A stretch of DNA of 64,000 bases from Thermoplasmata archaeon. GTDB taxonomy: Archaea; Thermoplasmatota; Thermoplasmata; Lutacidiplasmatales; UBA184. The DNA lies in assembly GCA_050011355.1 (NCBI GenBank), contig JBEKJG010000006.1, positions 30,640 to 94,639 on the forward strand, read 5' to 3'. The position numbers and the translations under genes are program-made. The notes beneath the pieces are model-generated. The model was not told the origin of the DNA. It made no database searches and saw only the letters and a list, made by a program, of their open reading frames with translations. This document shows, in pieces, positions 1-23,234 of this stretch. Every line of letters begins with the position of its first letter. The first letter of the stretch is position 1.

Positions 1-75
1 GGGCCAAGATCCGTCGGGACCTCGACGCGGCGGCCGATACGCTCTGGGCCGCGCGCCCGAAGTGACCTCGATCGG

Positions 76-750: not shown

Positions 751-818
751 TGTTCCCTCCGTCGACCCGAGGACGCCGGCGCTCTAAACCGTAAAGACCT
801 CCGGCCGTTCGTGCCGCC

Positions 819-1370
819 ATGGCCGAACTGGGAGCCTATCAGCTGCATCCGGGCGACGCCGCCCCGGACTTCCAGCTACCGGGCGTCGACGGGAAGACGT
901 ACCGGCTCGCGGACTTCGAGAAGTTCCCCCTGCTCGCCGTCGTCTTCTGGTGCAACCACTGCCCCTACGTCCAGGCCTGGGAAGGTCGGATGATCGAGAT
1001 CGGCCGCCGGTACGCACCGCGGGGAGTGGGGGTCGTGCTGATCAACTCGAACGATGCGCGGGCCTACCCGGAGGACCGGATGGAGGCGATGGTCGTCCGC
1101 GCCCGAGAGAAGGGCTACCCGTTCCCCTACCTGGTGGACGAGTCGCAGGCGACCGCCCATGCCTACGGCGCCCTCGTGACCCCCCATCCGATGCTGTTCG
1201 GTCCGGACCGGAAGCTACTGTTCCAGGGTCGGATCGACAACGACCATCAGCATCCGGAGCGGGCGTCCGAGAAGTACCTCGAACGGGCGATCGAGCAGGC
1301 GCTCGCCCACACTCCCGTCGCCCCGGCCGAGCTAACGGTCGCGGGATGCACCGTCAAGTGGCGGTCCTGA
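819..1370 (+). CDS. Thioredoxin-fold thiol-disulfide oxidoreductase (redoxin / AhpC-TSA family)
   Basis: 183-aa ORF with PDFQLPGVDGKTYRLADF and a WCNHCP CxxC centre. Its 3' end overlaps the convergent nop5 gene by 39 nt. Confidence 0.8.
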   Translation: MAELGAYQLHPGDAAPDFQLPGVDGKTYRLADFEKFPLLAVVFWCNHCPYVQAWEGRMIEIGRRYAPRGVGVVLINSNDARAYPEDRMEAMVVRAREKGYPFPYLVDESQATAHAYGALVTPHPMLFGPDRKLLFQGRIDNDHQHPERASEKYLERAIEQALAHTPVAPAELTVAGCTVKWRS

Positions 1371-2378: not shown

Positions 2379-2474
2379 GCGGGCCCCCGGTGACGATCGA
2401 GCGTGTCTGAGTTCCGGGCCCGCCGACGGCCCGCGGGAACTTGCAGGACCACGAACGTGGGGAAGCCGTCGCGC

Positions 2475-2481
2475 ATAAATA
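2475..2481 (+). promoter_or_regulatory. TATA-like box (ATAAATA) about 28 nt upstream of the ATG at 2506
   Basis: AT-rich heptamer in GC-rich DNA. The same spacing recurs at other genes in this window, suggesting leaderless or short-leader mRNAs. Confidence 0.4.
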
Positions 2482-2505
2482 GCCCGGCTCGGGTCGAGCC
2501 CCGTC

Positions 2506-3408
2506 ATGCCCGAAGACCCCGCCCACCCCCTCGTTCGATCCGAACGGTCGGGCCCCACGCTCCTCCTCACGATCGACCACCCCCCCGTGAACGTGCTCTC
2601 TCGGGCGGTACTCGAAGCGCTTCTCCGACGGCTGGACGAGGCCGAGGCCGATCCCCAGGTCCGTGTGGTCGTGCTCGCGAGCGCGGCCGCCAAGGCGTTC
2701 GCCGCCGGCGCCGACATCCGAGAGATGGCCGGCATGGGCCCGGAGGAAGCCCGAGTGCACGGGGCGCGCGGGCAGGCCGTCACCCGGCGGATCGAACGGC
2801 TGCCGCTCCCCGTTATCGCGGCCGTCCAGGGCGTGTGCCTTGGAGGGGGGTGCGAGGTGGCCCTCGCGTGCGATTTCGTGATCGCGACCCCGGACGCCCA
2901 GTTCGGTCAACCCGAGATCAACCTCGGCGTCACCCCGGGGTGGGGGGGCTCCCAGCGCCTTCCCCGACGGATCGGGGTCGCCCGGGCTCGGCGATGGATC
3001 TACACGGGCCGGTCGGTCGGGGCGGAGGAGGCCCGCTCCGACGGCTGGGTCGACCGGGTGGTTCCCCGCGAGGAGCTCCTTCCCGCGGCCCTCGCCTTGG
3101 CAGAGGAGCTGGCGGCGAAGCCGCCGTTGGCCCTCGCCGCGGCGAAGTACGAGATCCTACGCGCCGCCGACCCGGCGATCGATGAGTCGCTCGCGTACGA
3201 GTTGGACCTGTGGGCTCGCCTCTTCGGAACGCCCGACCAGCGCGAGGGAATGCGGGCGTTCCTCGAAAAGAAGCCGGTGCCTCCGCGCGACCGGACCGGC
3301 TGGGCAGAGGACTCGGTGGGGTTCCCCTGGAGCCATCCGGGAGCTCCGGGACGGGACGACGGCGCGGGCGGAAAACGGAAAAGGAAGGACGGGTCGGGTC
3401 AGGACTGA
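2506..3408 (+). CDS. Enoyl-CoA hydratase/isomerase (crotonase) family protein
   Basis: 300-aa ORF with crotonase motifs FAAGADIREM, IAAVQGVCLGGGCEVALACD and FGQPEINLGVTPGWGGSQRLPR, plus a basic C-terminal tail. Confidence 0.85.
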   Translation: MPEDPAHPLVRSERSGPTLLLTIDHPPVNVLSRAVLEALLRRLDEAEADPQVRVVVLASAAAKAFAAGADIREMAGMGPEEARVHGARGQAVTRRIERLPLPVIAAVQGVCLGGGCEVALACDFVIATPDAQFGQPEINLGVTPGWGGSQRLPRRIGVARARRWIYTGRSVGAEEARSDGWVDRVVPREELLPAALALAEELAAKPPLALAAAKYEILRAADPAIDESLAYELDLWARLFGTPDQREGMRAFLEKKPVPPRDRTGWAEDSVGFPWSHPGAPGRDDGAGGKRKRKDGSGQD

Positions 3409-3409
3409 C

Positions 3410-3482
3410 GCCGCGGTGGCTCAGCTGGCAGAGCGGCTCCTTGGTAAGGAGCAGGTCGAGGGTTCAAATCCCTCCCGCGGCT
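3410..3482 (+). tRNA. tRNA-Thr (anticodon GGU)
   Basis: Hand-folded cloverleaf. Acceptor GCCGCGG/CCGCGGC, D-stem GCTC/GAGC, anticodon stem GCTCC/GGAGC with loop TTGGTAA, T-arm GAGGG-TTCAAAT-CCCTC, discriminator T. Confidence 0.9.
3458..3482 (+). repeat. Left copy of direct repeat (T-arm stems plus 3' acceptor strand of tRNA-Thr)
   Basis: GAGGG..CCCTCCCGCGGCT. The 13-mer ccctcccgcggct recurs exactly at 5192..5204 and the 17-mer aaatccctcccgcggct recurs 16/17 at 5188..5204. GAGGG also recurs at 5167..5171. Confidence 0.7.
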
Positions 3483-3552
3483 TCGGGACGAGTCGCTCGT
3501 CGACACCCGGACGGGATTCGGTTCGAGCCAAGGCGGGTGGATTACAGCAGCT

Positions 3553-3873
3553 TCAATCTGCCGGAGGCCCCCGACTGTGCGGCTTAAAACCCTGGTACGT
3601 CCGATTCGTACGCAGTAGAATCCGCTCTATCACTGGACGCCCGTGACGGATTTGGTAGAGCGCCCGATATCCAACAACTTTCAGACGCCATCGCCTCGGA
3701 TCATTTCGAATGGGGCAGACGTCCAAAGTTTCGGACGGCCTTTGGGGGTATCGAGTGAACTCAGGGAATAGGGCCGCGAACTGCTCGATAACTTCCGGAG
3801 GAAGCGCCCAGAATTGGAGACGGGCACTGAACGTGAAGTCGGGCCAATCGTCCCGCGACCTACGTGCGGCCAC
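3553..3873 (-). CDS. RelE/ParE-superfamily toxin-like protein
   Basis: 106-aa ORF. RRWRLKVVGYRALYQIRHGRPVIERILLRTNRTY fits the RelE/ParE pattern (wRlRvGdYRaiYei...v.i..v.hR...Y). It overlaps the upstream antitoxin-like ORF by 14 nt. Paralog at 20307..20630. Confidence 0.65.
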   Translation of the reverse strand: MAARRSRDDWPDFTFSARLQFWALPPEVIEQFAALFPEFTRYPQRPSETLDVCPIRNDPRRWRLKVVGYRALYQIRHGRPVIERILLRTNRTYQGFKPHSRGPPAD

Positions 3874-4102
3874 GCTGGCGGCTCCACTCGGCGAACTCGC
3901 GCTTCATTTCGGCGCCCGGAATGATGCGCTCCGTACGGAGCCGCCGGTCCAGCTCGGACCGGAGGGATGGGGAAATGAAGTCATCCGCGAGCGCCAAGAG
4001 AAAGTCGTCCCACGTCTGATCGGCCATCTTGGTCCCGCGAAGTGCCTGCAGCGTGGATTGGTGAACGGGGATGCTCGTGACCGCGTCCGAAGTCGACATC
4101 AT
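3860..4102 (-). CDS. Antitoxin-like protein (PF02697/DUF217 VapB-like pattern)
   Basis: VTSIPVHQSTLQALRGTKMADQTWDDFLLALADDF aligns with the paralog at 20080..20310 (LTSIPVHADVVRRLRSLKTADQTWDEFLTEMAEDY). The track ORF begins at TTG 4108. ATG 4102 or 4099 fits the TATA box at 4123..4129 better. Confidence 0.6.
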   Translation of the reverse strand: MMSTSDAVTSIPVHQSTLQALRGTKMADQTWDDFLLALADDFISPSLRSELDRRLRTERIIPGAEMKREFAEWSRQRGRT

Positions 4103-4122
4103 TTGCAAAATGATTCAAATGG

Positions 4123-4129
4123 TATAAAA
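4123..4129 (-). promoter_or_regulatory. TATA box (TTTTATA on the minus strand) for the TA pair
   Basis: Lies 24-27 nt upstream of the ATG codons at 4102 and 4099, in a locally AT-rich spacer. Confidence 0.45.
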
Positions 4130-4387
4130 GAAGTGACTTGCCTGGCCGCGCGACCGGTTCCGCCGAGCATTCATCCTCCGCGACCCCGCTCCCATCTTAC
4201 TCGGAATCGCCGGGAGATTGGGTCTTCGCACCCCGGGACCTTGAACAGGTCACCGGAGCCCTCCTACGGCTGACTTCCCAGGTCGACGGCGTCTCCTCGA
4301 ACGGTACCGTTCCGCCCCTCAAAAGCCAAGGCTGCCGTCCACCGAAAATCTCCTATCGAGTATTCTACTACCCTTTACCGCGTTCCC

Positions 4388-5101
4388 ATGCGACTCCGAA
4401 CCGTCTTCTTCGACTGGGGCGGAACGCTCGCGCAGATTCCACCGCAGCTCAATCGACCCGAACTGGTCTGGGACTCGACCTGCTCGGGTTTCGACATCCG
4501 ACGCACGGAGGCAGAGATCCACCAGGCGCTCGTCGAGGTGGACCGGAGTCTAGGCCCCCAGATCTACAGGTACGTAGGGCGAACGCGCGAATACTGGGGA
4601 CTCTACGACGGGGCCATGATGGATCGATTGGATATCCAGTTCCGCCGGGACGAGATCGAAGCGGCCGTGCAGGCAAAGTTCGAGGACCCCTCGGTCGTGC
4701 AGCTCTTCCCCGAGACCTGGTCTGTCTTGGACCGTCTTCGGGCCCAGGGGTACCCGCTGGGCGTGATTTCGAATCACCACGACGGGCTATTGGACGTGTT
4801 GAGGTTTCACGGCCTCGACCAAGTCTTCAAGTCCGTCACTTACTCGCAGGAGGTAGGTGCGGAGAAGCCCTCGTCCGCAGTGTTCGAGCGGGCCCTGAAA
4901 CGGGCGGGATGTTCACCGGACGAAGCCCTGCATGTGGGAGATTCTCTTCGGGCCGACGTAGAAGGAGCCGAAGCCTGCGGGCTCAGCGCGGTCTGGCTGA
5001 ACCGGGATGGGCGGCCGGGGGTAACGACGGCGCGAACCATTCGGACTCTAAACGAACTGGTGCCCATTGTCGAGCAGCTGGCGGGCCCAGGCAAGGGATG
5101 A
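4388..5101 (+). CDS. HAD-superfamily hydrolase (subfamily IA-like)
   Basis: 237-aa ORF with motif I FFDWGGTL, motif II VISNH, and motif III/IV EKPSSAVF...HVGDSLRADVEGA. Confidence 0.85.
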   Translation: MRLRTVFFDWGGTLAQIPPQLNRPELVWDSTCSGFDIRRTEAEIHQALVEVDRSLGPQIYRYVGRTREYWGLYDGAMMDRLDIQFRRDEIEAAVQAKFEDPSVVQLFPETWSVLDRLRAQGYPLGVISNHHDGLLDVLRFHGLDQVFKSVTYSQEVGAEKPSSAVFERALKRAGCSPDEALHVGDSLRADVEGAEACGLSAVWLNRDGRPGVTTARTIRTLNELVPIVEQLAGPGKG

Positions 5102-5166
5102 GGTAGCTTCCCACCGCCCACCCTGGATCGCCTCCATTCTCTAAGGGTGTCGGAGTTCCTCGGACC

Positions 5167-5204
5167 GAGGGCTTTGAATCAAACGAGAAAGCCCTCCCGC
5201 GGCT
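5167..5204 (+). repeat. Right copy of the tRNA-Thr 3'-end repeat, with a T-arm-like hairpin and expanded loop
   Basis: gagggcttt(5167-5175) - 12-nt loop - aaagccctc(5188-5196), followed by ccgcggct. It keeps the GAGGG/CCCTC T-stem and the 3' acceptor strand of tRNA-Thr. No matching 5' acceptor strand (gccgcgg) lies upstream. Confidence 0.65.
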
Positions 5205-5346
5205 CGTCCGGGGACCCGGACCGGTGGACGCGAAACGTTCCGGTCGAGTGTGAACGCGAACGGCGGGGTCGATGACCCGCCCCCGCCTCCCGACCTTGTC
5301 CGTGGGACGTTAGGGCGAGCGTCGAAGGGGCCGGCGTGGCGGGCCC

Positions 5347-5871
5347 CTACGCCGTGATGCGTTCCCTCACCACCCTCCGAGCGATCGTCGCGACTTGCCT
5401 TTCGGTCCGCCCGTCGGTGTCGATCACAAACTCTCCGCGGACCGGGCGAGTGACCCAACCCTCGTGGCTCGCCCGGACATAGGAGGGCCGGAGGGTCGTC
5501 TTCCTTCGGACCGCCTCGGCGGTGGAGGTCGTCAGGCGGAAGAGCACCACCCGAGGGTCTGAGCGCGACCTTCCGACCTTGCGCAGGAAGCGGTCGACGT
5601 TCTTGGTCGAAAGCAGGAGTCCGGGGTCCATCACGAGGTTCAAGCCTCGCCCGAGGACGAGCCGTGCGTGGAGCGCCAGAAGGTCGATCTCCACATCCCA
5701 CTCCTGATCGAGGAACTCCCCCGAAGAGTCGGCCGGGTGGTACGAAGCTGCAGCGTCTGTGTCGAGGGCCCAAAACGGAACGCGACGGCCACGGGCGAGC
5801 GCGCGCATCAGCGTGGTCTTGCCCGCACCGATCGGGCCACGGATGATCGCGAGGAGCGGTCGTGCCTTCAT
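5347..5871 (-). CDS. P-loop NTPase/kinase (AAA_33 / zeta-toxin-like fold), function unknown
   Basis: Walker A IRGPIGAGKTTLMRAL. Start set at ATG 5871 (MKARPLLAII). The upstream part of ORF 5347..6039 carries no recognisable signal. Confidence 0.6.
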   Translation of the reverse strand: MKARPLLAIIRGPIGAGKTTLMRALARGRRVPFWALDTDAAASYHPADSSGEFLDQEWDVEIDLLALHARLVLGRGLNLVMDPGLLLSTKNVDRFLRKVGRSRSDPRVVLFRLTTSTAEAVRRKTTLRPSYVRASHEGWVTRPVRGEFVIDTDGRTERQVATIARRVVRERITA

Positions 5872-6132
5872 CGCCGGGTACCCATGTTCCACGCCGCTTC
5901 GGGCAAGAGAGGGTACACCTTTACTCCACCCCATCGTGGACACGTGGGGGGTGCACCGGACCGCCTCGGGAACAACGAACTTCGGACTCAACCACGCGGC
6001 CTCGCCACGGCCGATCCTCCCTCTCGGGCCGAACGTCAAACCTTCCCACCGGATCCTTCACTCTCGGGGCGGCTAGGTTCGCGGAGCGCTCGCGCTGAGG
6101 GAACGGCCGCCCCGCCAGCCATGGACTAAAGC

Positions 6133-7008
6133 GTGGGGGATGCCTTCGGTGGAGTGAAGGAAGCGAACGATCTGACCGGAGCCGAGGAGCTGGTTCGCCG
6201 CGCCCATCGGACCGAGATCGAGGCCAAGTGGGCGATCACCCAGATCGCACCACGACCCCGTCGTCGGGATTGGCCGGGGGCCACCGCTGTCGCCTGTGAC
6301 GTTCCCTCGTCCGTCGCCAACGTCCTCTTCGTGACCGAACGCCCCTCGGACCCGAACGGCCTCCTGGACGAGGCGAGCGGGTTCTTTGGGCCGAGCACGC
6401 CGTGGAAGATGATGGCCCCCCGGGAGCTCGCGCCCACCCTGGAGCGGGCCGCCCAGCGAGCCGTCCTCACACCCTCGGAGACGGTGCCGGGGCTCCTGTT
6501 GGACCCGGTGGCCACCCCTCCGGCACCGCCCCCGGGGTTTGCCGTCCGAGCGGTGACCGACCTCATGGACTTTCGACTCTTCCTGAAAGCCGGCGCGGCG
6601 GGATTCGGGATCCCGCACTGGATCCTTCGGGCGGCGTTCCGGGAGCTACCTTCTGCGCCGGCGAACGGAGACCCTCCTCTCCAGCTGTTCGTGGGCCTCG
6701 CGGGCGGGAAACCCGTCGCGACATCCGCACTGTTCGTGGGCCGGGAAATCTCGGAGGTCTCGTTCGTCAGCACGGTCCCCGGCGCGCGGAAGCACGGCTA
6801 CGGTGCGGCCATCACGTGGGCCGCCGTAGGGGCCGGACGAGGTCGGGGCGGACGGTCCGCGTATCTTCGGGCGACCGAGATGGGCCGGTCGGTCTACGAG
6901 CGGATGGGCTTCCGGTGGCTGGTCGACTACCAAGAGTGGCACTCTGCACTGTCTGGAGTGCACAAGCTCCGCGCCGTGCTCCGGGCTCTCCGCATCGCCC
7001 TCGTCTGA
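6133..7008 (+). CDS. GNAT-family N-acetyltransferase with an N-terminal extension
   Basis: C-terminal acetyl-CoA motif VSTVPGARKHGYGAAITWAAV...YERMGF. Start uncertain. Confidence 0.65.
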   Translation: MGDAFGGVKEANDLTGAEELVRRAHRTEIEAKWAITQIAPRPRRRDWPGATAVACDVPSSVANVLFVTERPSDPNGLLDEASGFFGPSTPWKMMAPRELAPTLERAAQRAVLTPSETVPGLLLDPVATPPAPPPGFAVRAVTDLMDFRLFLKAGAAGFGIPHWILRAAFRELPSAPANGDPPLQLFVGLAGGKPVATSALFVGREISEVSFVSTVPGARKHGYGAAITWAAVGAGRGRGGRSAYLRATEMGRSVYERMGFRWLVDYQEWHSALSGVHKLRAVLRALRIALV

Positions 7009-7056
7009 TCGAACTTCCCGACAGGGAGGTGTTCGGGTCGGGGCCCCTGTCTTGGA

Positions 7057-10000
7057 ATGTACCCGGTCCTGGGGGGTTGGGAACCGTTATCCTTGTGGTG
7101 GAAGAATGAGGCGACGGACGGAGAGGTCGACATGGAGGCGTGGGCGGAGTGGGTCCGGACCGGGTTTCGAGACGGTACTTTCGCCCCGCGAGTCGGGTTC
7201 GTCACCGCGGTGGTTGGCCTACTCCTCCTCTCATCAGTCCTCGTCGGGGTGGTCGCATCGGCAGGACCGTCGAGCTTCCCCACGGCTCGCTCGGCTCCGA
7301 CAGTACCGCTCGCTACGCACTCCCTGCCTCCGTCGGGGGGCCGAGCTACCCCGGCGTCGGGGGGCGTCGGGACGGTCATCGACACCCTGGACCTCCCGTC
7401 GAATCGGTTACTCGCCGGCAACCAAGCCCCGGCCCCACAGGGGACTCCCCAGATGCTACTTTTCGACCCCGGCAACGGCAACTTCTACGTTCGCGGGAAT
7501 GCGGGTCAGACGATCAGTGTCGTCAACGCGTCGACCGACGCCGTGCTGACCAGCCTGACCGTGGGCTACGGCGGGAGTGCCTACATTCCGAACGTCCCCA
7601 CGGTCGCCCTGGACCCGGCCACCGGTGACCTGTTCGAGACGAACCCCACCTCTGGGACGGTCGGGGTGATCTCGACCTCCACGAACCTATTGACGCATTC
7701 CGTCCCACTCGGCACGGGACCGGGAGGTATCGTATTCGACCCGGCGAACGGGAACTTCTACACCTCCAATTGGTACAGCGACAATGTCTCCGTCATCTCG
7801 GGTTCGACCGACCAGCTCCTGGGGTCCATCCACGTCGGAGGCGAGCCGGGCGCGATCCTGTACGACCCGAACAACACGGAGGTGTTCGTATCGAACTTCA
7901 ACACCGGCAACGTCTCGGTCATCAACTCGACGACCGAGTCGGTGGTGGCAAACCCCCGGACTGGCCTCAGCGGCTCTGAGCCGCTCGCACTGACGCTGAA
8001 CACGGCGAACGACCTGGTCTATGTCGTCAACTCGCTCACCAACAACATCACGGTGATCAACGGGACGACCAACAACGCGACTGCGACCGTTCCCGTGGGG
8101 TCGGTACCGACCTCCGCCACCTATGCCGTGTCGACCGACCAGCTCCTGGTCGCGAACGGAGCCTCGAACAACGTGACCGTGCTCCAGCTCCCCGCGAACA
8201 CTGCCGTGGCCAGCATCGCCATCGGACACGGCGCCCAGGGCGCGGTCTACGACCCCCACAGCGGTGACGTTTACACGGCGAACTATGGGTCGAACAACGT
8301 CAGCATCCTCGACCCGTCCACCGACACGTGGGTCGGGGCGGTGACGACCGGCAATTTCCCGGAAGAGATCGCCGTCGACCTGCATGACGGCAACGTGTAC
8401 GTGGCCAACCTCGGGACGGACGCCGTCGACTCGAACCTCACGGTCATCTCCGGCACGACCTCCCTTTCGATCGGTTCGGTCGGACTGACCGCGATCCCGA
8501 CCTCCCTGACCGCGGTCCCGGGCGGCAACCTCTACGCCATCGACTACGGCGGCTCGGACGCCTACATCATCTCCGAGTCGACCAACCACGAGACGGGGGT
8601 CGTTCCCGCCGCGTCGCCGGAGCCGACCTACTCGGCGTTCGACACCGCGACGGACGACCTGTACATCACGAGCGAACCCACGGGGGCGGTCAACGTCGTC
8701 ACGACGACCGGAACCGTGGTGGCGACCCTCAACCTGGGATTCGGCTCGGACGGCGTCGCCTACGACCCCTCGAACGGCGAGGTCTACGTCTGCAACTACT
8801 ACAGCGGAAACGTCACCATCATCGACGGGACGACCGAGACGGTCCACTCCGTGATCACGGTCCAGACATTCGACAGCCTGGGCGCCGAGATCTACGACCC
8901 GGCCGATTCCTCGGTCTACGTGGCGGACTATCTCGACCACAACGTGACCGTGGTCAGCGGGGGAGCCACCGACGGCTCGATCCAGGTCGGGACCGACCCC
9001 TCCTCGTTCGCCTACGATCCCCAGAATGACACCATCTTCGTCGCGAACTACGGTTCGAACAACATCAGCGTGATCAACGCGACGACCAACCAGCTCGTCG
9101 GGACGGTCTCCGGATACTACCCCGACTACCTGGCGTACGACTCCGGAACCAACTCGGTCTACGTGGCGTCCGCGGAGAACGGGGAGGTCGATGCGTTCAA
9201 CGCTTCGACGTACCTCACGCTCGGGTCGCCGTTGATGATCAACTCCTCCGTCCGTTCGGGCGGGATCGCCTACGGCGCCACCTCCGGCGACATCTACGTG
9301 ACGAACGAGTTCGGCGGTTCGCTCTCGGTCATCTCAAGCTCCAACGTCTCGAGCTACCCGGTCACCTTCGTGGAGAACGGGCTCCCGTCCGGCACGAGCT
9401 GGGGCGTGACCCTCGGCGGAACACCGAACCTGTCGACCACCCCCGACGTCGGGTTCACCGAACTGAACGGCTCATACCCCTTCTCGGTCGGGAGCGTAAC
9501 GGGATACGTTGCGAACGTCACTTCCGGTAACGCGGTGGTCGCGGGCAAGGCCGTGACGGTGTTCATCGGATTCACGCCCAACTCCTCCCCGAATTCCTTC
9601 CCCGTCCAGTTCAACGAAACCGGCCTCCCGACGGGGACGCAGTGGGGAATCTCCCTGACGCCGTCCGGCGCGGGCTCCCTCGGCGAAGCCGCCCCCTCGC
9701 CCATCCTCTTCGAGCTGTCGAACGCAAGCTACTCGTTCCACGTCGGTGCGGTCAGCGGGTACACTTCCTCGCCGAGCTCGGGCCCTTTCACCGTCGCCGG
9801 ATTGCCGGTCTACGTAGACGTCACCTTCACGGCTGCTTCCACTACCCTCACGGCCTCGCTCACGATCGACCCCTCGAACCTGACCCTGGGTTCGAGCACC
9901 ACCCTCACGACGTCCGCCTCCGGCGGAGCGCCCCCCTACTCGTACGTGTACGCGGGCCTCCCGGCGGGCTGCACCTCCTCCAACGTCGCCACGTTCAGCT

Positions 10001-12945: not shown

Positions 12946-13842
12946 TCACCCTCCGAGGGCCTTGACTGGAGGAGAGGGAAGACCCCTCCGGACGAATCGG
13001 GCGGAGATCGCCTGGCCGACCCGGACCACGAGATAAACGGAGAACGCGATGGTGACGATGAAGAAGCTTGCGGGGTACTGCGCGTAGAATTGGACGAACA
13101 GCCCCACCCACGTGGCGAACAGCGCCACCGCGATCGAGACCAGGACCGCATAGAGTGGACGCCGGGTGAGCCGCACCGCCACTGCGGCCGGGGTGACCAT
13201 CAGAGCAAAGATCAGAAGCACACCAATCACCTGGACCGCGATCGAGATCGCGACGGCGAGGAGGAGCATGAACGTCAGGCCGAGCGCGAGCATCGGCATA
13301 CCCTTCGCCTCCGCGACGTCCTCGTCCAGCGAGGCGAACAGCAGCCGCCGGTAGATCAGCGCGATCACTACGAGGACGACCGCGCTCGCCTCGAGCGTGA
13401 ACAGGACCCCGCTGTCGCTGATGCCCAGTATTTCTCCGAACAGGATCGAGTACGCCTCGGTCGCATAGCCGTTGTAGAGGCTGATGAACAGCAGGCCCAA
13501 TCCCAGCATGAACGCCAACACGGTCCCGATCTCGATGTCCCGGTTCGCCGCCCGGGGCCCCAGCAGCGCCATCCCGGTCGCCCCGGTGGAGGTGAACAGA
13601 AGGAGACCGTAGACGGGGTTCACCCCGAGGAGTACCGCCGCGGCCGCGCCCGAGAACCCGACATGTCCGAGCGCGTGCGTCGCGAAGGCAGAGCGGCGGA
13701 TAATGACGAAGTAGCCGATGATGCCGGCAACGATCGAGATGATCGTGCCGGCTTCGAAGGCATTGCGCATGAACCCGAACTCCCACATCGTGCGGAGGTC
13801 GGTGATCAGGTTCCAGCTGAACGGAACCAGGTCGCCGGTCAT
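12946..13842 (-). CDS. Metal (Zn/Mn-type) ABC transporter permease, ABC-3 family
   Basis: 298-aa polytopic ORF (FMRNAFEAGTIISIVAGIIGYFVIIRR..THALGHVGFSGAA) typical of ZnuB/MntB/TroC. Overlaps the ATPase gene by 4 nt. Confidence 0.85.
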   Translation of the reverse strand: MTGDLVPFSWNLITDLRTMWEFGFMRNAFEAGTIISIVAGIIGYFVIIRRSAFATHALGHVGFSGAAAAVLLGVNPVYGLLLFTSTGATGMALLGPRAANRDIEIGTVLAFMLGLGLLFISLYNGYATEAYSILFGEILGISDSGVLFTLEASAVVLVVIALIYRRLLFASLDEDVAEAKGMPMLALGLTFMLLLAVAISIAVQVIGVLLIFALMVTPAAVAVRLTRRPLYAVLVSIAVALFATWVGLFVQFYAQYPASFFIVTIAFSVYLVVRVGQAISARFVRRGLPSPPVKALGG

Positions 13843-14666
13843 CCGTTCTCCCCCCCGTGCGGGTCCTCACCGCCGACGATCACGATGTTGTCGCGCGAGT
13901 CGTGGAGCACCTCGACCGGCACCCCGTAGAGTTCGGAGAGGGAGGCCGAGGTAAGAACCTCCTCCGGGGCGCCGGTGGCGACGTTGCCGTTGGCGATGTA
14001 GATCACCTTGTCCAGGCACTGGATCAGCGGGTTGATGTCGTGGGCCACGAGCAGGGTCGTGACGTGTCGAGTCTGCACGAGCCCGTGGATCACCTCCACC
14101 AGTTCGCGGCTGCGCCGGAGGTCCAGGTTGGACAGGGGCTCATCGAGGAGCAGCATCTCGGGATTTCCGACGAGGGCCTCGGCGAGGAAGACCCTCTGCA
14201 GTTCCCCTCCGGAGAGCGTGCCGAGCGGTTTCGGCCCAAGCTCGGCGGCCCCCACGGCCCGGAGCGCTCCGGCGGCCGCTTCCCGCTCGGGGCGGATCGA
14301 GAGGCCGGGCCCCCATTTTGTGCCTGACACACCGAGGCGAACCAGCGTTTCCGCGGCGACGTGCGTGTCGTTATCGATCGTATGCCGCTGGGGGACGTAA
14401 CCGATCCGCGAGTTCCCTCGCCGAGGGGTCGCACCGAATACCGTTAGCGACCCAGCCATGGGGTGCTGCAGTCCCAACAGGAGGCGAAAGAGCGTGGTCT
14501 TGCCGGCGCCGTTCGGTCCGATGACCGCCACGAACTCGCCTCGTCGGACGTCGAGCGTGGCGTCCTGCCAGACCACCTTCCCGCGATAACCGACCTCGAG
14601 ATGCTCGGCGCGCACGACCTCCGGCCCTTCACGGAGCTCGGCGGATCGTCGGTGCGATGCGTTCAC
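13839..14666 (-). CDS. Metal ABC transporter ATP-binding protein
   Basis: Walker A GPNGAGKTTLFRLL, signature LSGGELQRVFLAEAL, Walker B LLLDEP. Confidence 0.9.
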   Translation of the reverse strand: MNASHRRSAELREGPEVVRAEHLEVGYRGKVVWQDATLDVRRGEFVAVIGPNGAGKTTLFRLLLGLQHPMAGSLTVFGATPRRGNSRIGYVPQRHTIDNDTHVAAETLVRLGVSGTKWGPGLSIRPEREAAAGALRAVGAAELGPKPLGTLSGGELQRVFLAEALVGNPEMLLLDEPLSNLDLRRSRELVEVIHGLVQTRHVTTLLVAHDINPLIQCLDKVIYIANGNVATGAPEEVLTSASLSELYGVPVEVLHDSRDNIVIVGGEDPHGGENG

Positions 14667-14672
14667 GGTAGA

Positions 14673-15752
14673 TTATTGCCCGAGGGTCTTCGAGTTCAGC
14701 GCGTTCTGGAGGGCCACATACTCGGCTCCCATCCAGGCCTGGAAGCTAAGACTGGAGGGTTGGATGGTTTCGGTAACTCCGACGATCGAGACGTTGTTCT
14801 CCGCGGCGATGGCCTTCATCGAGGTCGTGATCGGGGTCACCGTCTGCTCGTTGTAGACCATAACCACTACGTGACCGCTCTCGAGCTGACACTGGAACTG
14901 CACGACGCTCTGAGCGGGCGGGTCGTTCCCTTCGGCGATCGCCTCCATGAAGGCCGGCGGGGAGACTAGGTCGAGGTTGGTGTAGTTCGCGAGGTAGACG
15001 AAGATGCTCTCGGTCGAGGCGACCTCCGTTCCTGCGAACTGGTGCTTGATCTCGGCCGCCTGACCGTACAGCTCTCCCAGGGAGACGTTCATGCTCGCAT
15101 AATTGGATTGAAAGTAGGCGGTGGAGGCCGGCTGTATCGCGACGAGGTCAGAATACATCGCCGCCAGCGTACGGTTCACGTACGTCGGGTTGTACCACAT
15201 GTGCGGGTTGCCGGACACAATTCCTCCTGACACGCTCACACCGTTCAATACCCCGACATTCAAGACCTCCTGCGGAGGGGCGCTCCGGGCGCCGATCAAC
15301 TGGAGCGCCCAGTCATCGTACCCCACCCCGTTCACGATGACGAACTCCGCGTCGTTGATCGCGATCGCGTCAGAGCTGTTCGCCTCGTATTCGTGCGGGT
15401 CGGCGTTGGGGTCGGTCACGATGCTGAGCACCGAGGTTTGGTTTCCCCCCAACTGAGAGACGAGACTCCCCCAGAAGTTTTCCGCCGCCACCACCGGAAT
15501 AACGGGGCCGGAACCCGTCACGCGGAACTCTCTATGGCCCGCAGGCGGGGCCGAGATTTCGGAAGACGGCAGGCTACTACCGGCCTCGACCGGTCGGACG
15601 GCAGACGGCCCGACACGGGGTACGACCTGGTTCGCATTGGTAGCGGCACAGGGGGAGTTGGGTGCCGAGCTGGAGTAGACCTCGTATCCGATCGCACTCG
15701 CCACCACGAGCACGACCGCCACGATCGCCACAATTCGCGTGGACTTCTGCAT
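14673..15752 (-). CDS. Metal ABC transporter substrate-binding protein (TroA/ZnuA cluster-9 type)
   Basis: VVAAENFWGSLVSQLGG...DPHEYEANSSDAIAINDAEFVIVNGVGYD. Start set at ATG 15752 (MQKSTRIVAIVAVVLVVASA, signal or anchor) rather than the ORF start at 15845, which would overlap the regulator gene. Confidence 0.8.
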   Translation of the reverse strand: MQKSTRIVAIVAVVLVVASAIGYEVYSSSAPNSPCAATNANQVVPRVGPSAVRPVEAGSSLPSSEISAPPAGHREFRVTGSGPVIPVVAAENFWGSLVSQLGGNQTSVLSIVTDPNADPHEYEANSSDAIAINDAEFVIVNGVGYDDWALQLIGARSAPPQEVLNVGVLNGVSVSGGIVSGNPHMWYNPTYVNRTLAAMYSDLVAIQPASTAYFQSNYASMNVSLGELYGQAAEIKHQFAGTEVASTESIFVYLANYTNLDLVSPPAFMEAIAEGNDPPAQSVVQFQCQLESGHVVVMVYNEQTVTPITTSMKAIAAENNVSIVGVTETIQPSSLSFQAWMGAEYVALQNALNSKTLGQ

Positions 15753-15790
15753 CGAGAACCCTCCTGTCTCCGCGACCTCGATCGGGCGGG

Positions 15791-16222
15791 TCACCCCGTC
15801 CGGCCTGGCGTGTGGCAAGGAGCAATCGGCTCTCCGTGCGGACACTCAACGGGGTGCCGCTGCGCGCGGCAAAGCTCCTCCACGGTCCTATGGGATAGGG
15901 CCAGGTCGATCTCCCGGGCCGCGGCGCAGGTCTTATCGGGCGCGAGCCCCAGACTGCCGAATAGGCTCTCGGCCACCCGGTGGTGGCGCTGATACTCGGT
16001 TAGTGTGCTCCGGCCCCGAGCGGTGAGGCGCGACTTCCCGCGGTGCCGCGCAATGAGGCCCAGGGCCTCCAGTGGCGTAAGGTGAGTCAACGCCGACGGG
16101 GCCCGGACGCCGAGGGCGGTCGCGGTGGCTTTGAGAGACACCCCTTGTTCAGGCGTCTCCCGGGCTCCGACCGCCCGCAGGGCGTCGACCTGACGACGGG
16201 TCAGCTGCTGGAGTGCCTCCAT
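15791..16222 (-). CDS. DtxR/MntR/SirR-family metal-dependent transcriptional repressor
   Basis: 143-aa ORF with a wHTH (VSLKATATALGVRAPSALTHLTPLEALGLI) plus a dimerisation/metal domain (YQRHHRVAESLF...EIDLALSHRTVEEL). It is the first gene of the metal-importer operon. Confidence 0.8.
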   Translation of the reverse strand: MEALQQLTRRQVDALRAVGARETPEQGVSLKATATALGVRAPSALTHLTPLEALGLIARHRGKSRLTARGRSTLTEYQRHHRVAESLFGSLGLAPDKTCAAAREIDLALSHRTVEELCRAQRHPVECPHGEPIAPCHTPGRTG

Positions 16223-19745: not shown

Positions 19746-19848
19746 AGCGGGGTAGGGTAGTCAGGAAAACGTCCGGGGACCCCGGCCGTCCTGAAATCCC
19801 GACGGGCTCATAACCCGTAGATCCATGGTTCAAATCCATGCCCCGCTA
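19746..19848 (+). tRNA. tRNA-Met (CAU), initiator-like, with a ~28-nt insertion in the D-loop region
   Basis: Acceptor AGCGGGG/CCCCGCT (A1:U72). Anticodon stem ACGGG/CCCGT (three G:C pairs) with loop CTCATAA (CAT at 19809..19811). T-arm CATGG-TTCAAAT-CCATG, discriminator A. There are 38 nt between the D-stem halves GGGT (19755-58) and TCCC (19797-800), against about 9-10 expected. Confidence 0.7.
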
Positions 19849-19870
19849 GCTTCTGGCGAGGCAGTCGCCA
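19836..19870 (+). repeat. Left copy of a 35-nt direct repeat (last 13 nt of tRNA-Met plus 22 nt downstream)
   Basis: ccatgccccgctagcttctggcgaggcagtcgcca versus ccatgccccgctagctactggcgaggcacacgcca at 21625..21659. Identity is 32/35 in the same orientation. Confidence 0.85.
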
Positions 19871-20048
19871 GCTCATACTCCGGCGCGACGGGGGTTCTAC
19901 ACTTCTCCACGGTACGTTGTCAAAAGCCCCACCCTCAGTTCGAGCGCCCGAGACTGACCTCCCTGCAGATCTAGCCCTGTCTGAGGGAGTCGAGAGGGAG
20001 GACGTCCCTTCCGGGCGGGGTCCGTCCCGGCCGGGCGATTCGCAGGGC

Positions 20049-20055
20049 TTATCAA
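20049..20055 (+). promoter_or_regulatory. TATA-like box (TTATCAA) 28 nt upstream of the ATG at 20080
   Basis: Same spacing as at other genes in this window. Confidence 0.4.
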
Positions 20056-20079
20056 TGGTGGTCATGTACCGTCACCAAC

Positions 20080-20310
20080 ATGGCGGGGGGCCCCCTAACT
20101 TCAATTCCGGTCCACGCCGATGTCGTCCGGCGACTTCGCTCGCTCAAGACCGCCGATCAAACCTGGGACGAATTCTTGACGGAGATGGCCGAGGACTACG
20201 TCCCCCCGGGGTGGTACGCGGAAATGGAACGGCGGCGGATTGAAGGACCCGACTTCGCTGGGACGGCGGTCCTCGCCCGCTCCCGGGAGCTCGCGACTCA
20301 CGGTCGTTGA
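20080..20310 (+). CDS. Antitoxin-like protein (PF02697/DUF217 VapB-like pattern), paralog of 3860..4102
   Basis: 76-aa ORF containing LTSIPVHADVVRRLRSLKTADQTWDEFLTEMAEDY. Its stop overlaps the start of the toxin ORF (GTTGA). Confidence 0.6.
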   Translation: MAGGPLTSIPVHADVVRRLRSLKTADQTWDEFLTEMAEDYVPPGWYAEMERRRIEGPDFAGTAVLARSRELATHGR

Positions 20311-20630
20311 CCGTGGCGCGTCGCTTCGTCTTCCGCGCGCCGTCGGACACGGAGTACCTCGAACTTCCCGTCTCCCTCCGCCGAACGTTCGAAGAGATCC
20401 TGCCCGCGCTCGTCCGTCAACCCTTTCGTTCGGGAGCTGGATTTACCGTCGGCAGTGTTCGGCGGCACCCGGGTCTGTGGAAGCTGAAACTGACCGACTT
20501 TCCCCCCCGAACATTTCGTGCCATTTACGAAGTCGACGGCGAGGTCGTGAGGTTTCTTGGCTTTGGCCCGCGACCGGACTTCTATCGCCGCCTCCGTCAG
20601 ACCAACCGGATCTCACGGGATCGATTCTGA
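20307..20630 (+). CDS. RelE/ParE-superfamily toxin-like protein, paralog of 3553..3873
   Basis: 107-aa ORF. GLWKLKLTDFPPRTFRAIYEVDGEVVRFLGFGPRPDFY fits the RelE/ParE pattern. TTG start overlaps the antitoxin stop. Confidence 0.6.
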   Translation: MTVARRFVFRAPSDTEYLELPVSLRRTFEEILPALVRQPFRSGAGFTVGSVRRHPGLWKLKLTDFPPRTFRAIYEVDGEVVRFLGFGPRPDFYRRLRQTNRISRDRF

Positions 20631-20672
20631 CGGCTGGGCGGAGACTGCTACTTCAACAAGACGCAGTCGTCT

Positions 20673-21455
20673 CTATTCCGCCGTAGACCCTCGGGCGCGG
20701 CGCGAGGCCGACGGGGAGGGACGATAATCTTGAATGCGGTCGAGCCAGTCGCGAGCCAAGGCAGCCGCAAGGGGGTTCCGGTCGGTCCACAGAGTGTGGC
20801 CGGCCGAGTCCAGGATGGCGTACGTCGCCCGCGGGAATCCATTCAATAGCCTCCAGTACGTTCTGTAGCGGAAAGGAGCGTCCTGCCGGCCGAACAAGAG
20901 CAGGGTCGGCGCCCGAAAATTTGATCCGGGGCGGTAGAGAGCGACGGAGAGGTCCCGGAACGGAAGGCCCTCCAGCCACTGCGTGTCTTCCGAGTACTCG
21001 GAGAGACCGGGGCCCTTCCCTCGGGGCGTCAGAATCGAGGGGGTGCCAAATCGACGGTCCCGCAGTTCCTCCCGGGGACTGTGATTGACTTCGGGAACGC
21101 TCAACATCAATCCCGCCACTTGGGGGCCACGTCGCCGAGCGACGGCCAGGGCGAGATACGCTCCGAACGAGATCCCTCCGAGCGCGAATCTTTCGTCGGC
21201 CGCCACGTCGTCGATAAATTCTAGGACGACGTCCAGGTAGTCGTCCATATCCCGAATCCTAGTCGCGCCCGGGCTCTTTCCATGCCCCGGCAGATCCGGA
21301 TAGAATCGCCTCCAACCCGTTCGGGACCGGAATGCCGGTTCGACCTGGACCATTGCCCGAGTATGGTCACTTGGACTACCGTGAAGCATCACGAAGGGTC
21401 GACCACGACCTCGAGCCTCGTAATATATCGAAACCCCGGGAAGGCGACAGTACAT
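20673..21455 (-). CDS. Alpha/beta-fold hydrolase
   Basis: 260-aa ORF with oxyanion region FVMLHGSPSD and nucleophile elbow LGGISFGAYLA. Lower GC than the flanking DNA. Confidence 0.8.
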   Translation of the reverse strand: MYCRLPGVSIYYEARGRGRPFVMLHGSPSDHTRAMVQVEPAFRSRTGWRRFYPDLPGHGKSPGATRIRDMDDYLDVVLEFIDDVAADERFALGGISFGAYLALAVARRRGPQVAGLMLSVPEVNHSPREELRDRRFGTPSILTPRGKGPGLSEYSEDTQWLEGLPFRDLSVALYRPGSNFRAPTLLLFGRQDAPFRYRTYWRLLNGFPRATYAILDSAGHTLWTDRNPLAAALARDWLDRIQDYRPSPSASRRARGSTAE

Positions 21456-21624
21456 AGTACCCCCTCAGGTTGCGGCAGCTAAGGTCCCTTTCCCCGCCGG
21501 TGGGGTCATCGTCCGGGGGCGGGGCCACTTCGGCATGGACGGTTTAACGGCATCGAGCGTTTCAAACAAGTCGGAACCCGGCTCCGACTCACACTATGCC
21601 AGGGATTTGAACGAAAGTGCGATA

Positions 21625-21659
21625 CCATGCCCCGCTAGCTACTGGCGAGGCACACGCCA
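21625..21659 (+). repeat. Right copy of the 35-nt tRNA-Met 3'-end direct repeat
   Basis: See 19836..19870. The stop codon (21639..21641) of the convergent membrane-protein ORF lies inside this repeat. Confidence 0.85.
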
Positions 21660-22364
21660 CCCCGTGCTAGCCGGGCCCGCACGACCCACCGCGGCCCCGG
21701 CCGGGTGGGTTGTCCAACGCGAGACACCTGCTCCGGAAGTGCCCTCGCGGCAGCGCGGTTCCGGTGCTAGACCGAACCGACTTTGCCGGGGTTCTCCCCC
21801 GAATGCACCACTCCGCGGGGAGGGGATGGAGCCGGGCTCGGGTTCGGGCTCGCCGGTGATCGAGGCCACGGCGCCCAGGGCGCCGGCGGCGGCCGCACTG
21901 GTCGAGCAGCACGCCCCGAGCGTCAGGAGCGCCACCATCGCCGGGGTCATCCCAGCCAGTAGCGGAACTTGGCCCTCCATCGTCCGAGCGGCCCGCCACG
22001 AGCGGAAGAATCGGATCGCGACGAGGAGGCCGGCCCCCATCCCCAGCCCCACGCCGATCGAGACGACCGCCATCGAGATTGTCGCAAGGAGCGGGAGCAC
22101 CAAGACCGCCCCAGGTGTGACAACGATCAGGGCAGGATAGTTCCACCACGCGGGAGAATAGGGATTGGTCAGGACGGCGACGGTCGGCGTGGAGGCGCCG
22201 GTCCGGACGAACTCCAGCATGTAGCCGGCCAGGAGCGCGACGAAACCGTAGCCCACGGCGATCGCCGTGACCGCCAGCTTGGCGCGCACGCCACGGACCT
22301 CGGCCCGGGTGCGGCGGAGTGTAAGGAGGGATCCGAGCGTGATCGCACGGGCGCGCTCCGTCAT
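21639..22364 (-). CDS. Polytopic membrane protein of unknown function
   Basis: 241-aa ORF with several hydrophobic spans (LAVTAIAVGYGFVALLAGYML, ALIVVTPGAVLVLPLLATISMAVVSIGVGLGMGAGLLVAI). The last ~70 aa are P/G/R-rich and may be spurious. 4-nt overlap with the upstream gene. Confidence 0.6.
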   Translation of the reverse strand: MTERARAITLGSLLTLRRTRAEVRGVRAKLAVTAIAVGYGFVALLAGYMLEFVRTGASTPTVAVLTNPYSPAWWNYPALIVVTPGAVLVLPLLATISMAVVSIGVGLGMGAGLLVAIRFFRSWRAARTMEGQVPLLAGMTPAMVALLTLGACCSTSAAAAGALGAVASITGEPEPEPGSIPSPRSGAFGGEPRQSRFGLAPEPRCREGTSGAGVSRWTTHPAGAAVGRAGPASTGWRVPRQ

Positions 22365-23014
22365 GGTCGGCCCTTCCGAGCGTAGATCAGAGCCACCACT
22401 CCGACGAGGACAAGGAGCGACACGCCGATGACGGCTGCTTCCTGGGTTACTGGGGTGAGCCTAGAGTTACCGGCCACCGACCCGCTTCCGTTAGAAGCAT
22501 CGGCTCCCGTGTTTTCCCATCCGGGGTTTTGTAACGTAACGGCCACGGAAGAGTTGGCATAGAGCGTCTGACCCCCGGTGGTCGCCGTGACGTGCAGAGT
22601 CCCGCTCATCGGGGCCAGGCAGGCCGAATAGGCGACGGCGCCCCCGGCGGTGGAGTTGAGCACGCCAAGGTACGTCGGGGTCAACCACCAGGAGAATACC
22701 GTCGCCTCGCCCGTCGAACTGCCGCAACCGTTCGATACGGTCGCCCAGAACACCTGGTCCTGGAGCGGAGAGACATTGACGTTTCCCGGGTGGATCGCGA
22801 GTACTGGCAGACCACCGCCGCTGCAATTCGAGCCAAGCTCCCGGCTCGCCCCGCTAGAGACATACAAGTTCTGGGGGGTTGAATCGCGGGCCCTGCCCGT
22901 AGCAGAGCTCGGCGCAAGCGACCCGCAAACTAGCAATGCCATCAACACGAGGAGGGCGAGGCCCATGCCGGGGGGTCGAAGTCTCCCCGACCTTCGCGCG
23001 TTCGCATCGGTCAT
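22361..23014 (-). CDS. Secreted Ig-like (Big_2-like) protein with a C-terminal TM anchor
   Basis: Start set at ATG 23014 (MTDANARRSGRLRPPGMGLALLVLMALLVCGSLA, signal-like). Beta-rich body with sequons. C-terminal TM AAVIGVSLLVLVGVVALIYARKGRP. Confidence 0.6.
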   Translation of the reverse strand: MTDANARRSGRLRPPGMGLALLVLMALLVCGSLAPSSATGRARDSTPQNLYVSSGASRELGSNCSGGGLPVLAIHPGNVNVSPLQDQVFWATVSNGCGSSTGEATVFSWWLTPTYLGVLNSTAGGAVAYSACLAPMSGTLHVTATTGGQTLYANSSVAVTLQNPGWENTGADASNGSGSVAGNSRLTPVTQEAAVIGVSLLVLVGVVALIYARKGRP

Positions 23015-23234
23015 GCGTCCCGCGGCACTATCGGGCCGGGGGGATGAAGCCAAGGTGAACCCAAATTGACACGGGACGCCGGCCTCAAGGGTGCGTGATT
23101 CGTGCTCGGGGGAGGGAGGGCGTCCTGGACCGAGGACACGGCTCAGGTCCGCCCCAGGGGTCCAGATTCCCAAACCCTCCCGTCGACCTGGACGGGCACG
23201 GCGCTTTTACCGAGTACCGGATGTCTGACCGACC

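Follow-up and report, generated by a model that had tools for sequence, protein, structure and literature searches.

In a stretch of 64,000 nucleotides (nt) from a Thermoplasmata archaeon (GenBank assembly GCA_050011355.1, contig JBEKJG010000006.1, positions 30,640 to 94,639; here called the window and numbered from its first letter), a 1.8-kb cassette occupying positions 19849 to 21624 lies directly behind an initiator tRNA-Met (tRNA-iMet) gene and is bounded by two copies of the 3' end of that tRNA. We interpret the cassette, with a probability of roughly 0.65, as one member of a family of integrase-less, attP-bearing elements that is site-specifically integrated at the tRNA-iMet 3' end and mobilized in trans. 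Like satellite-type elements, it has attachment (att) sites and no recombination, replication, or transfer genes. An earlier reading of the sequence alone, the original prediction, had taken the two tRNA copies for the attL and attR of a site-specific integration, and this is supported by an empty site in one relative and by other inserts at the same tRNA with the same 3'-end bounds. It had also left a choice between a heavily decayed island and a small non-autonomous cassette. For the family, roughly 20 cassettes that keep their junction and some 30 open reading frames (ORFs) point to the second, and the copy in the window is old and is decaying in relatives.

The direct repeat extends over 44 nt at 84% identity (19836 to 19879 versus 21625 to 21668), and its first 35 nt match at 32 of 35 positions in the same orientation, as had been claimed for a duplicated tRNA-Met 3' end. 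With up to 3 mismatches allowed, the 35-mer was found at only two sites in the 64 kb, 19836 to 19870 and 21625 to 21659, and within the window it is therefore no common repeat, a case that would have spoken against the original prediction. Shuffled sequences gave two such matches in 0 of 100 trials. The left copy, attL (19836 to 19879, plus strand), starts with a 13-nt core (19836 to 19848) consisting of the 3' strands of the T-stem and of the acceptor stem, and then runs into trailer-like sequence that was brought in by the cassette. The right copy, attR (21625 to 21668, plus strand), has the second tRNA 3' end at 21625 to 21637, again followed by trailer-like sequence. Directly before attR lies the P arm (21588 to 21624, plus strand), which contains an inverted T-arm motif, GGATTTGAAC (21603 to 21612), and a 13-nt spacer, and which, together with the first part of the core, makes up an imperfect 11-6-11 dyad. 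At the opposite end, the P' arm (19849 to 20079, plus strand) is both the left end of the cassette and the promoter and leader region of a toxin-antitoxin (TA) operon. For comparison we used L-numbered loci, all of them contigs from metagenomes or metagenome-assembled genomes (MAGs) and many of them short. The first 64 nt of the P' arm are homologous to the tRNA trailers of L019 and L088, and the region upstream of the operon is conserved with L067.

The tRNA gene itself, at 19746 to 19848 (plus strand), was called neither by ARAGORN nor by Rfam at the gathering score, and the only tRNA genes that these two tools report in the window are a tRNA-Thr at 3410 to 3482 and a tRNA-Ser at 58294 to 58381. 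At a lax threshold, Rfam gave a partial match to 19784 to 19840 (23.6 bits), and ARAGORN called a tRNA-Met(CAT) after an insert of 25 to 37 nt had been removed in silico. Across nine orthologous tRNA-iMet genes on related contigs the exons are invariant, variation is confined to the central hairpin of the insert, and compensatory changes occur at two pairs of that hairpin. A cloverleaf with a bulge-helix-bulge (BHB) pairs 98% of cells across these genes, versus 34 to 49% with the partners slid. The BHB, a 4-bp helix (19762 to 19765 with 19790 to 19793) and two 3-nt bulges (19766 to 19768 and 19794 to 19796), sits at the exon-intron borders, and removal of the insert leaves a canonical cloverleaf, the two features by which intron-containing archaeal tRNA genes are recognized. 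The gene also shows the marks of archaeal initiator tRNAs, namely an A1:U72 pair and, at the base of the anticodon stem, three G-C pairs. These sequence comparisons indicate that 19746 to 19848 is a genuine archaeal tRNA-iMet gene with a non-canonical D-loop intron of 27 to 28 nt (19768 to 19795, plus strand, ends accurate to 1 nt). The gene serves as attB, its 3' end being the left repeat copy. The tRNA-Met gene of the original prediction is thereby borne out. ARAGORN and Rfam at its gathering score miss the gene because of the D-loop intron. An intron-containing initiator tRNA of this kind is invisible to standard tRNA finders, and automated island finders would overlook such loci.

Contigs with an identical flanking luciferase-like monooxygenase (LLM) gene come from peat and soil metagenomes and from the NCBI MAG GCA_964601065.1, and GTDB representatives whose LLM genes are related to it bear the label "Thermoplasmata archaeon"; the organism hosting the cassette is an uncultured Thermoplasmata archaeon of peat and soil. 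More than 20 independent assemblies carry the region at 99.3 to 100% identity, which removes the earlier concern that the second repeat copy might be an artefact of assembly. A chance repeat or an assembly artefact has a negligible probability in view of these assemblies, the shuffled sequences, and the recurrence of the same design in many unrelated contigs; nothing speaks for it, and a 17-nt repeat at the tRNA-Thr gene of the window is, taken alone, no longer than chance repeat families in that region. The cassette is fixed in the sampled population of its species.

Outside the species, the synteny of TrmB, LLM, and tRNA genes is kept in three relatives, L050, L088, and L019. In L050, whose LLM is 62% identical at the amino acid (aa) level, the tRNA is followed about 85 nt on by a GNAT gene with no cassette in between. 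The GNAT gene lies at 23235 in the window, 3.4 kb downstream of the tRNA. L050 thus supplies the empty site that had been named as a check on the integration, with the tRNA running directly into the distal flank. L088 has the same trailer behind the tRNA, then a toxin gene without its 5' portion, a shortened hydrolase gene, and, 1294 nt downstream, an attR of its own, which reads ATGGATTTGAACCAATCTGCGAAA followed directly by CCATGCCCCGCTA. In L019, a 64-nt trailer and a toxin remnant are all that is left, abutting a relocated ZnuABC operon. That ZnuABC/DtxR operon (L019 5900 to 9760) separates the cassette remnant from the GNAT gene, whereas in the window it is found beyond TrmB, at 12946 to 16222; the decayed cassette contains one of the breakpoints of this rearrangement. 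Between the window and L088, nucleotide identity is 72.3% in the flanks and 70.8% in the cassette. Since the cassette is as diverged as its flanks, the insertion appears to be old, predating the split of the window species, L088, and L019, and to have been inherited vertically since.

The composition of the insert also sets it apart. Its GC content is 0.630, versus a window mean of 0.687 (standard deviation, 0.025), which places it at the 1.1 percentile, and GC at third codon positions (GC3) is 0.69 to 0.74, versus 0.81 to 0.87 in the flanking LLM, TrmB, and membrane-protein genes. The two cassettes of the window, at tRNA-iMet and at tRNA-Thr, have its lowest GC and GC3. The lower GC that had been noticed from spot counts therefore holds in the windowed profile, with the insert in the lowest 1% or so.

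Related inserts occur elsewhere. On L067 the genes upstream are different and include one for pyruvate:ferredoxin oxidoreductase (PFOR), yet tRNA-iMet leads into the antitoxin-toxin pair. A degenerate junction comes next, then four further small ORFs, and finally a second junction, marked by another copy of the tRNA 3' end. The degenerate junction (L067 7420 to 7460) stands directly 3' of the toxin gene, so the TA pair alone makes up a cassette of about 0.8 kb there. A gene for an IS110-family transposase lies at 12408 to 13436 of L067, about 2 kb past the last junction. In L070 to L073, the TA pair is found inside an array downstream of tRNA-Thr(GGT), where a 38-nt repeat that terminates in the tRNA-Thr 3' end occurs four times, at spacings of 578 to 3017 nt. 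The four junctions after the tRNA in L070 (3137 to 8123), and likewise in L073, delimit cassettes of 578, 680, 3017, and 638 nt, which hold a SnoaL gene and pairs of small genes (70 aa plus 114 aa), possibly further TA modules. The TA module was thus seen in several unrelated contexts. The right-hand copies share an inverted copy of the T-loop and stem, GGATTTGAAC at iMet sites and GGGCTTTGAAT or similar at Thr sites, placed 13 nt before the core (14 nt in two of the tRNA-Thr copies). The tRNA-Thr sites have the same motif, spacing, and spacer consensus as the iMet sites, with the stem adapted to the T-stem of tRNA-Thr, and cassettes at other tRNAs, which had been suggested as something to look for, thus exist both in the window and in L070 to L073.

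Metagenome contigs were scanned with the pattern GATTTGAA-N(11-15)-CCATGCCCCGCTA, written to exclude the window species, and this yielded 16 further loci from tropical peat with 1 to 3 junctions each. A sequence model, R1, was built from 21 junctions and found further, more degenerate copies. It matches the junction of the window at 21588 to 21657 (46.3 bits, E value of 7e-13) and attL at 19832 to 19872 (23.9 bits). Junctions of the L09x clade remain conserved for some 85 nt on the left side of the 13-nt core and some 100 nt on its right side; the spacing is fixed, and the motif GAT-TGAA and most core positions are invariant. This junction provides a sequence handle, GGATTTGAAC-N13-tRNA 3' end, for mapping arrays, for tracing the co-occurrence of recombinases, and for searching reads for circles.

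The junctions are arranged in arrays, with three in L094, three in L098, three behind the tRNA in L101, two behind the tRNA in L090, and four behind tRNA-Thr in L070. Relatives thus have one to three cassettes after tRNA-iMet and up to four after tRNA-Thr, and the window has one per tRNA. Over all loci, successive cores lie about 0.58 to 4.7 kb apart and delimit roughly 20 cassettes, each with a complete conserved junction; cassettes of 0.58 to 0.9 kb hold a single intact cargo gene. The cargo is varied, comprising a PKD-domain surface protein, an AAA kinase, adenylate cyclases, a CDF transporter, an esterase, NHL-repeat proteins, SnoaL, DUF3237, an MFS transporter, hemerythrin, a methionine-synthase-like protein, and TPR and unknown proteins.

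The form of the junction suggests what acts on it. Its 11-6-11 dyad, ATGGATTTGAA-CNAAWC-GRGAARTCCAT, is complementary at a mean of 6.1 of 11 positions, versus 0.8 to 4.0 in shifted registers. Dyad symmetry of such size is typical of the core sites of tyrosine recombinases. R1 positions 16 to 35 also match the reverse strand of every tRNA-iMet T-arm. The dyad may point to a resemblance to Xer/dif sites, against which stands that the tRNA has no matching symmetry in the 11-6-11 register. To judge from the invariant motif, the dyad symmetry, and the fixed spacing of 13 nt, the site is recognized by a protein, probably of the tyrosine-recombinase class. A conserved RNA structure in the junction was also considered and was dropped after RNAalifold, run on the 21 junctions, returned only a 4-pair hairpin without covariation and no conserved long hairpin.

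Signs of exchange at the core come from the right arms. At internal junctions these resemble the tRNA trailer of the same clade, and at the outermost junction of each contig similarity falls to the level of shuffled sequences immediately after the core, although an outermost junction is not always a proven array end, some contigs stopping soon after it. Such a pattern is expected if circles of the form P-core-P' integrate into the tRNA and the native trailer is left after the last junction. Cassettes also turn over between loci. L090 and L101 share their flanks (87% nucleotide identity upstream and 81% downstream) and have unrelated cassettes, a SnoaL cassette is common to L094 and L098 (89%), and a PKD cassette is present in L091, L094, and L105, each time behind different neighbors. 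L099 and L101 are 99.7% identical over 4.1 kb, and 5 of their 13 differences fall in a single 10-nt patch from core position 12 to position +9 of one junction, which is the boundary of core and P' arm (704 to 713 of L099, reverse strand). At this patch the sequence of L101 agrees with its own tRNA trailer and that of L099 with another junction type, which suggests recent recombination or gene conversion at the site. No strain differences clustered at the core in L090, L095, and L104 or in the window, L009, and L018.

These same observations bear on a different explanation, in which no dedicated system operates today, the junctions serve as portable homology for homologous recombination after DNA uptake, and the tRNA duplication was a one-off event. 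The junctions are indeed long (about 190 nt) and 70 to 90% alike, the L099/L101 patch looks like gene conversion, and the block shared by L094 and L098 starts off the junction. Yet outermost right arms that are unrelated to the consensus right after the 13-nt core suggest that exchange occurs there, sites of one design are found at two tRNAs with a stem fitted to each tRNA, and the invariant motif, spacing, and dyad have the look of a protein-recognized site. We regard homology alone as an improbable explanation.

A recombinase gene was sought at several levels. The three genes of the insert and the ORFs that cross the repeat copies gave no integrase or transposase family match, which agrees with the original prediction for the cassette, and the same is true of about 40 other genes of the window. 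Among about 30 cassette ORFs of relatives there was no recombinase, recombinase fragment, or replication protein, and among the called or scanned genes in the DNA around the arrays there was no tyrosine recombinase. The element-encoded integrase that is expected of tRNA-integrating elements was thus not found. An SSV-type integrase (that of Sulfolobus spindle-shaped viruses) split by integration was considered and rejected, as the border ORFs at 19808 to 20065 (minus strand), 19917 to 20243 (plus strand), and 21535 to 22140 (plus strand) have no Pfam matches; non-genic DNA at the two borders amounts to only about 230 nt and 170 nt. The original prediction had further envisaged an integrase with a matching attP elsewhere, and none turned up in the 64-kb window, in the DNA around the arrays, or in IMG/VR, PLSDB, and INPHARED. 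The iMet junction pattern is absent from the viral contigs of IMG/VR, and a BLAST search with a junction gave no match in PLSDB or INPHARED. Several apparent matches in IMG/VR were discarded: those to the tRNA-Thr pattern were chance matches in phage coding DNA, at least 120 matches to the tRNA 3' end were bacterial tRNA-Met prophage sites that encode CCA and are not archaeal, and a fourth search pattern matched once, in an unrelated context. Many viral contigs in that database with a GC content of 0.6 (L106 to L225) carry the same 20-nt tRNA-Met 3' end with CCA encoded, and several bacterial tRNA-Met prophage sites, for example L185, show an inverted T-arm copy on the phage side.

The main rival to mobilization in trans is decay, in which the cassette would be the remnant of an autonomous integrative virus or plasmid that has lost its integrase and replication genes and has kept cargo and att scars. 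The copy in the window is old, has flank-like divergence from L088, and is visibly decaying in L088 and L019, and about 1.6 kb after attR is also missing in L050. Archaeal elements are documented to lose integrase genes once integrated and to integrate in tandem (PMC8371274), and the tycheposon islands of Prochlorococcus show scattered partial tRNAs from old integrations (bioRxiv 10.1101/2020.12.28.424599). For the family, decay would need complete and independent loss of the integrase in about 20 cassettes with the full junction of about 200 nt spared each time, it sits badly with cassettes of 0.58 to 0.9 kb that hold a single intact cargo gene, and no integrase fragment is left in about 30 ORFs or in the ORFs spanning the att sites. 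We consider decay unlikely overall, although it may well describe the present state of the window copy.

It is very improbable that we are dealing with a classical integron or with a CALIN (cluster of attC sites lacking integron integrases), a type reported in archaeal MAGs. What the present arrays have in common with integrons and CALINs is small, mostly single-gene accessory cassettes with a recombination site at one end, two or more per array in relatives, TA cassettes among them, no integrase inside the cassettes, and new cassettes presumably entering at a fixed platform site; archaeal integrons are, moreover, mostly CALINs (PMC9668308). The platform here is a tRNA gene, however, not an attI beside intI, and no intI was found within 20 kb of any array seen, nor any other linked integrase. 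In place of an attC, the cassettes have a site that copies a tRNA 3' end, with the T-arm and acceptor strand imitated: there is no RYYYAAC...GTTRRRY pair, the motif ATTTGAAC having no direct GTTRRRY partner in the junction. The cassette genes lie in both orientations with their own promoters. The paper on archaeal integrons describes IntI/attC systems and makes no mention of tRNA (PMC9668308).

Other known systems share parts of this design. Elements with tyrosine integrases that target tRNAs (SSV-type, pNOB8-type, prophages, and islands) likewise integrate at a tRNA 3' end, regenerate the tRNA at attL, leave a partial tRNA at attR, have atypical GC, and carry inverted tRNA sequence on the attP side. 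The present cassettes differ in having no integrase, intact or split, in being cargo-only and 0.6 to 4.7 kb in length, and in that the duplicated tRNA part is 13 nt, the rest of the shared site lying outside the tRNA; the int(N) and int(C) fragments that border an SSV-type provirus are absent. Bacterial cis-mobilizable elements (CIMEs) are reportedly flanked by attL and attR, devoid of recombination and transfer genes, prone to tandem accretion, and served by a recombinase in trans. The cassettes resemble CIMEs in being att-flanked, in lacking those genes, and in accumulating in tandem. However, CIMEs stem from identifiable integrative and conjugative elements that use the same att site, whereas we know of no parent element here, the host belongs to the Archaea, and each site holds far smaller cassettes in greater number. 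With tycheposon islands they share variable islands beside a tRNA, repeated integration at the same tRNA, older material inward, and scattered partial tRNAs. Tycheposons have their own integrase and often replication genes and measure 10 to 20 kb (bioRxiv 10.1101/2020.12.28.424599), whereas every unit here is integrase-less and keeps a conserved junction. Full-text literature searches brought up no description of tRNA-anchored, integrase-less cassette arrays in archaea, and the nearest archaeal reports concern elements that bear a recombinase (PMC3293823; PMC8371274).

Several observations weigh against mobilization in trans of a site-specifically integrated cassette. All of at least 21 contigs from the window species carry the cassette, and none has an empty site. 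No recombinase was found in about 40 other genes of the window by contig annotation and Pfam scans, and IMG/VR, PLSDB, and INPHARED yielded no circular form and no replicon bearing attP. The strongest array evidence comes from a genus-level clade other than that of the window. R1 gives the window junction 46 bits, versus 64 to 84 bits in the L09x clade, and the window copy may no longer be recombination-competent. Finally, the homologous block of the L094/L098 SnoaL cassette starts away from the junction, and ordinary homologous recombination therefore also reshapes arrays.

The second cassette of the window, at tRNA-Thr, has the same architecture, as had been claimed for the region from 3410 to 5204. 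The tRNA-Thr(GGT) gene (3410 to 3482, plus strand; ARAGORN and Rfam) is followed by an insert at 3483 to 5187 with a GC content of 0.612, the lowest-GC stretch of the window. This cassette carries a ParE/RelE-like toxin (3553 to 3873, minus strand), a homologous antitoxin (3860 to 4108, minus strand), and a HAD hydrolase (4388 to 5101, plus strand). Its repeat, 3466 to 3482 again at 5188 to 5204, matches at 16 of 17 positions, a length at chance level by itself. The site has the same junction motif as the iMet sites (5167 to 5204, plus strand), with a dyad, GAGGGCTTTGAA-TCAAAC-GAGAAAGCCCT, that is complementary at 8 of 11 positions and then runs into the copy of the tRNA-Thr 3' end. The tRNA-Ser gene was rejected as a third attachment tRNA, there being no copy of its 3' end downstream and no array.

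The tRNA-iMet cassette has genes for the putative RelE-like toxin and antitoxin and for the alpha/beta hydrolase that had been predicted, in agreement with profile comparison, a structure model, and family matches, the one for the antitoxin being below threshold. The antitoxin gene (20080 to 20310, plus strand) encodes a DUF7557-like protein of 76 aa with a sub-threshold match to that family (E value of 5e-4), which recurs in 5 of 6 homologues, and it overlaps the start of the toxin gene by 4 nt. The toxin gene (20307 to 20630, plus strand) encodes 107 aa, and neither Pfam nor NCBIfam has a model that matches the product. The toxin belongs to a small family of 28 clusters, all on Thermoplasmata-like contigs, whose profile has Escherichia coli RelE as its top match, over the full length (E value of 0.025). 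An AlphaFold2 model of the toxin (predicted local distance difference test score of 78) gave target-normalized template-modeling scores of 0.70 to 0.80 in Foldseek to archaeal and bacterial RelE, YoeB, and ParE, and the protein is thus predicted to have the RelE/YoeB/ParE fold. A toxin of this fold beside a small antitoxin gene is the arrangement of RelE/ParE type II TA systems, and the small upstream gene overlapping by 4 nt is likewise as in RelBE and ParDE modules. The pair differs from those modules in the absence of a Pfam or NCBIfam match for the toxin, in the below-threshold antitoxin match, and in its restriction to a few Thermoplasmata lineages. The differences between the window and L009, which are 99.6% identical, cluster at 20033 to 20088, immediately 5' of the antitoxin gene and at its start, in the likely promoter and operator region. 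The alpha/beta hydrolase (20673 to 21455, minus strand; 260 aa) was assigned by family match as a cargo gene. Its apparent truncation in other contigs (191 versus 260 aa) was discarded, because the DNA is identical and only the start call differs.

Beyond attR, positions 21669 to 23234 hold genes for a 239-aa membrane protein and a 270-aa secreted protein, both on the minus strand and both absent from L050, and this segment is possibly an older insert. It was rejected as a second cassette, as neither loose pattern matching nor R1 detected any decayed junction ahead of the GNAT gene. Between 21851 and 21852, the window is missing 122 bp that all other contigs of the same species carry. This loss frameshifts the membrane-protein gene, whose native stop is near 21766, so that the ORF in the window extends to 21639 and overlaps attR. 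A 9-kb run of TA and related modules (MNT/HEPN, VapBC, Fic, PIN_3, and DUF7557/RelE-like) occupies L086 from 1 to 9220 with no recognizable iMet or Thr junction, and no junction was recognizable in L068 or L089 either, R1 included. Possibly L086 is an array whose sites have diverged, or one located at a different tRNA.

In the mechanism that we propose, site-specific recombination at the tRNA-iMet 3' end would have brought a cargo-only cassette of 1.8 kb into the chromosome. The sole feature shared by the cassette family is an attP-like junction of three parts. Its left P arm has the inverted T-arm copy (GGATTTGAAC) at a fixed distance of 13 nt; its core, also 13 nt long, is identical to the 3' strand of the T-stem and acceptor and would rebuild the tRNA at attL; and its right P' arm mimics the tRNA trailer. 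We infer a circular intermediate and predict a crossover at the 3' end of the 13-nt core. Repeated integration at the intact tRNA would push older cassettes outward and so build arrays at tRNA-iMet, and a version of the same site adapted to tRNA-Thr would build arrays there too. The recombinase, not being in the cassettes, would have to act in trans from elsewhere in the genome. The window copy would have integrated before the window species, L088, and L019 diverged and would have been inherited vertically since, and its RelE-type TA pair probably contributes to its retention.

Neither integration at tRNA genes nor the existence of integrase-less satellites is new. More tentatively, and we think it rather less likely than mobilization in trans as such, some Thermoplasmata may have a form of integron-like gene capture of a new design, with a tRNA as platform, cassette sites that mimic the tRNA, and an unlinked recombinase. 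The platform would be the initiator tRNA-Met or tRNA-Thr gene, and a site of about 100 to 200 nt would mimic the T-arm and acceptor strand. A candidate recombinase, possibly a host enzyme, would insert, excise, and shuffle cargo-only cassettes, and TA cassettes would stabilize the arrays. If the cassettes are mobilized in trans, they would represent a second, independently evolved route to integron-like gene capture and would explain the turnover of accessory genes in abundant, uncultured peat-soil Thermoplasmata.

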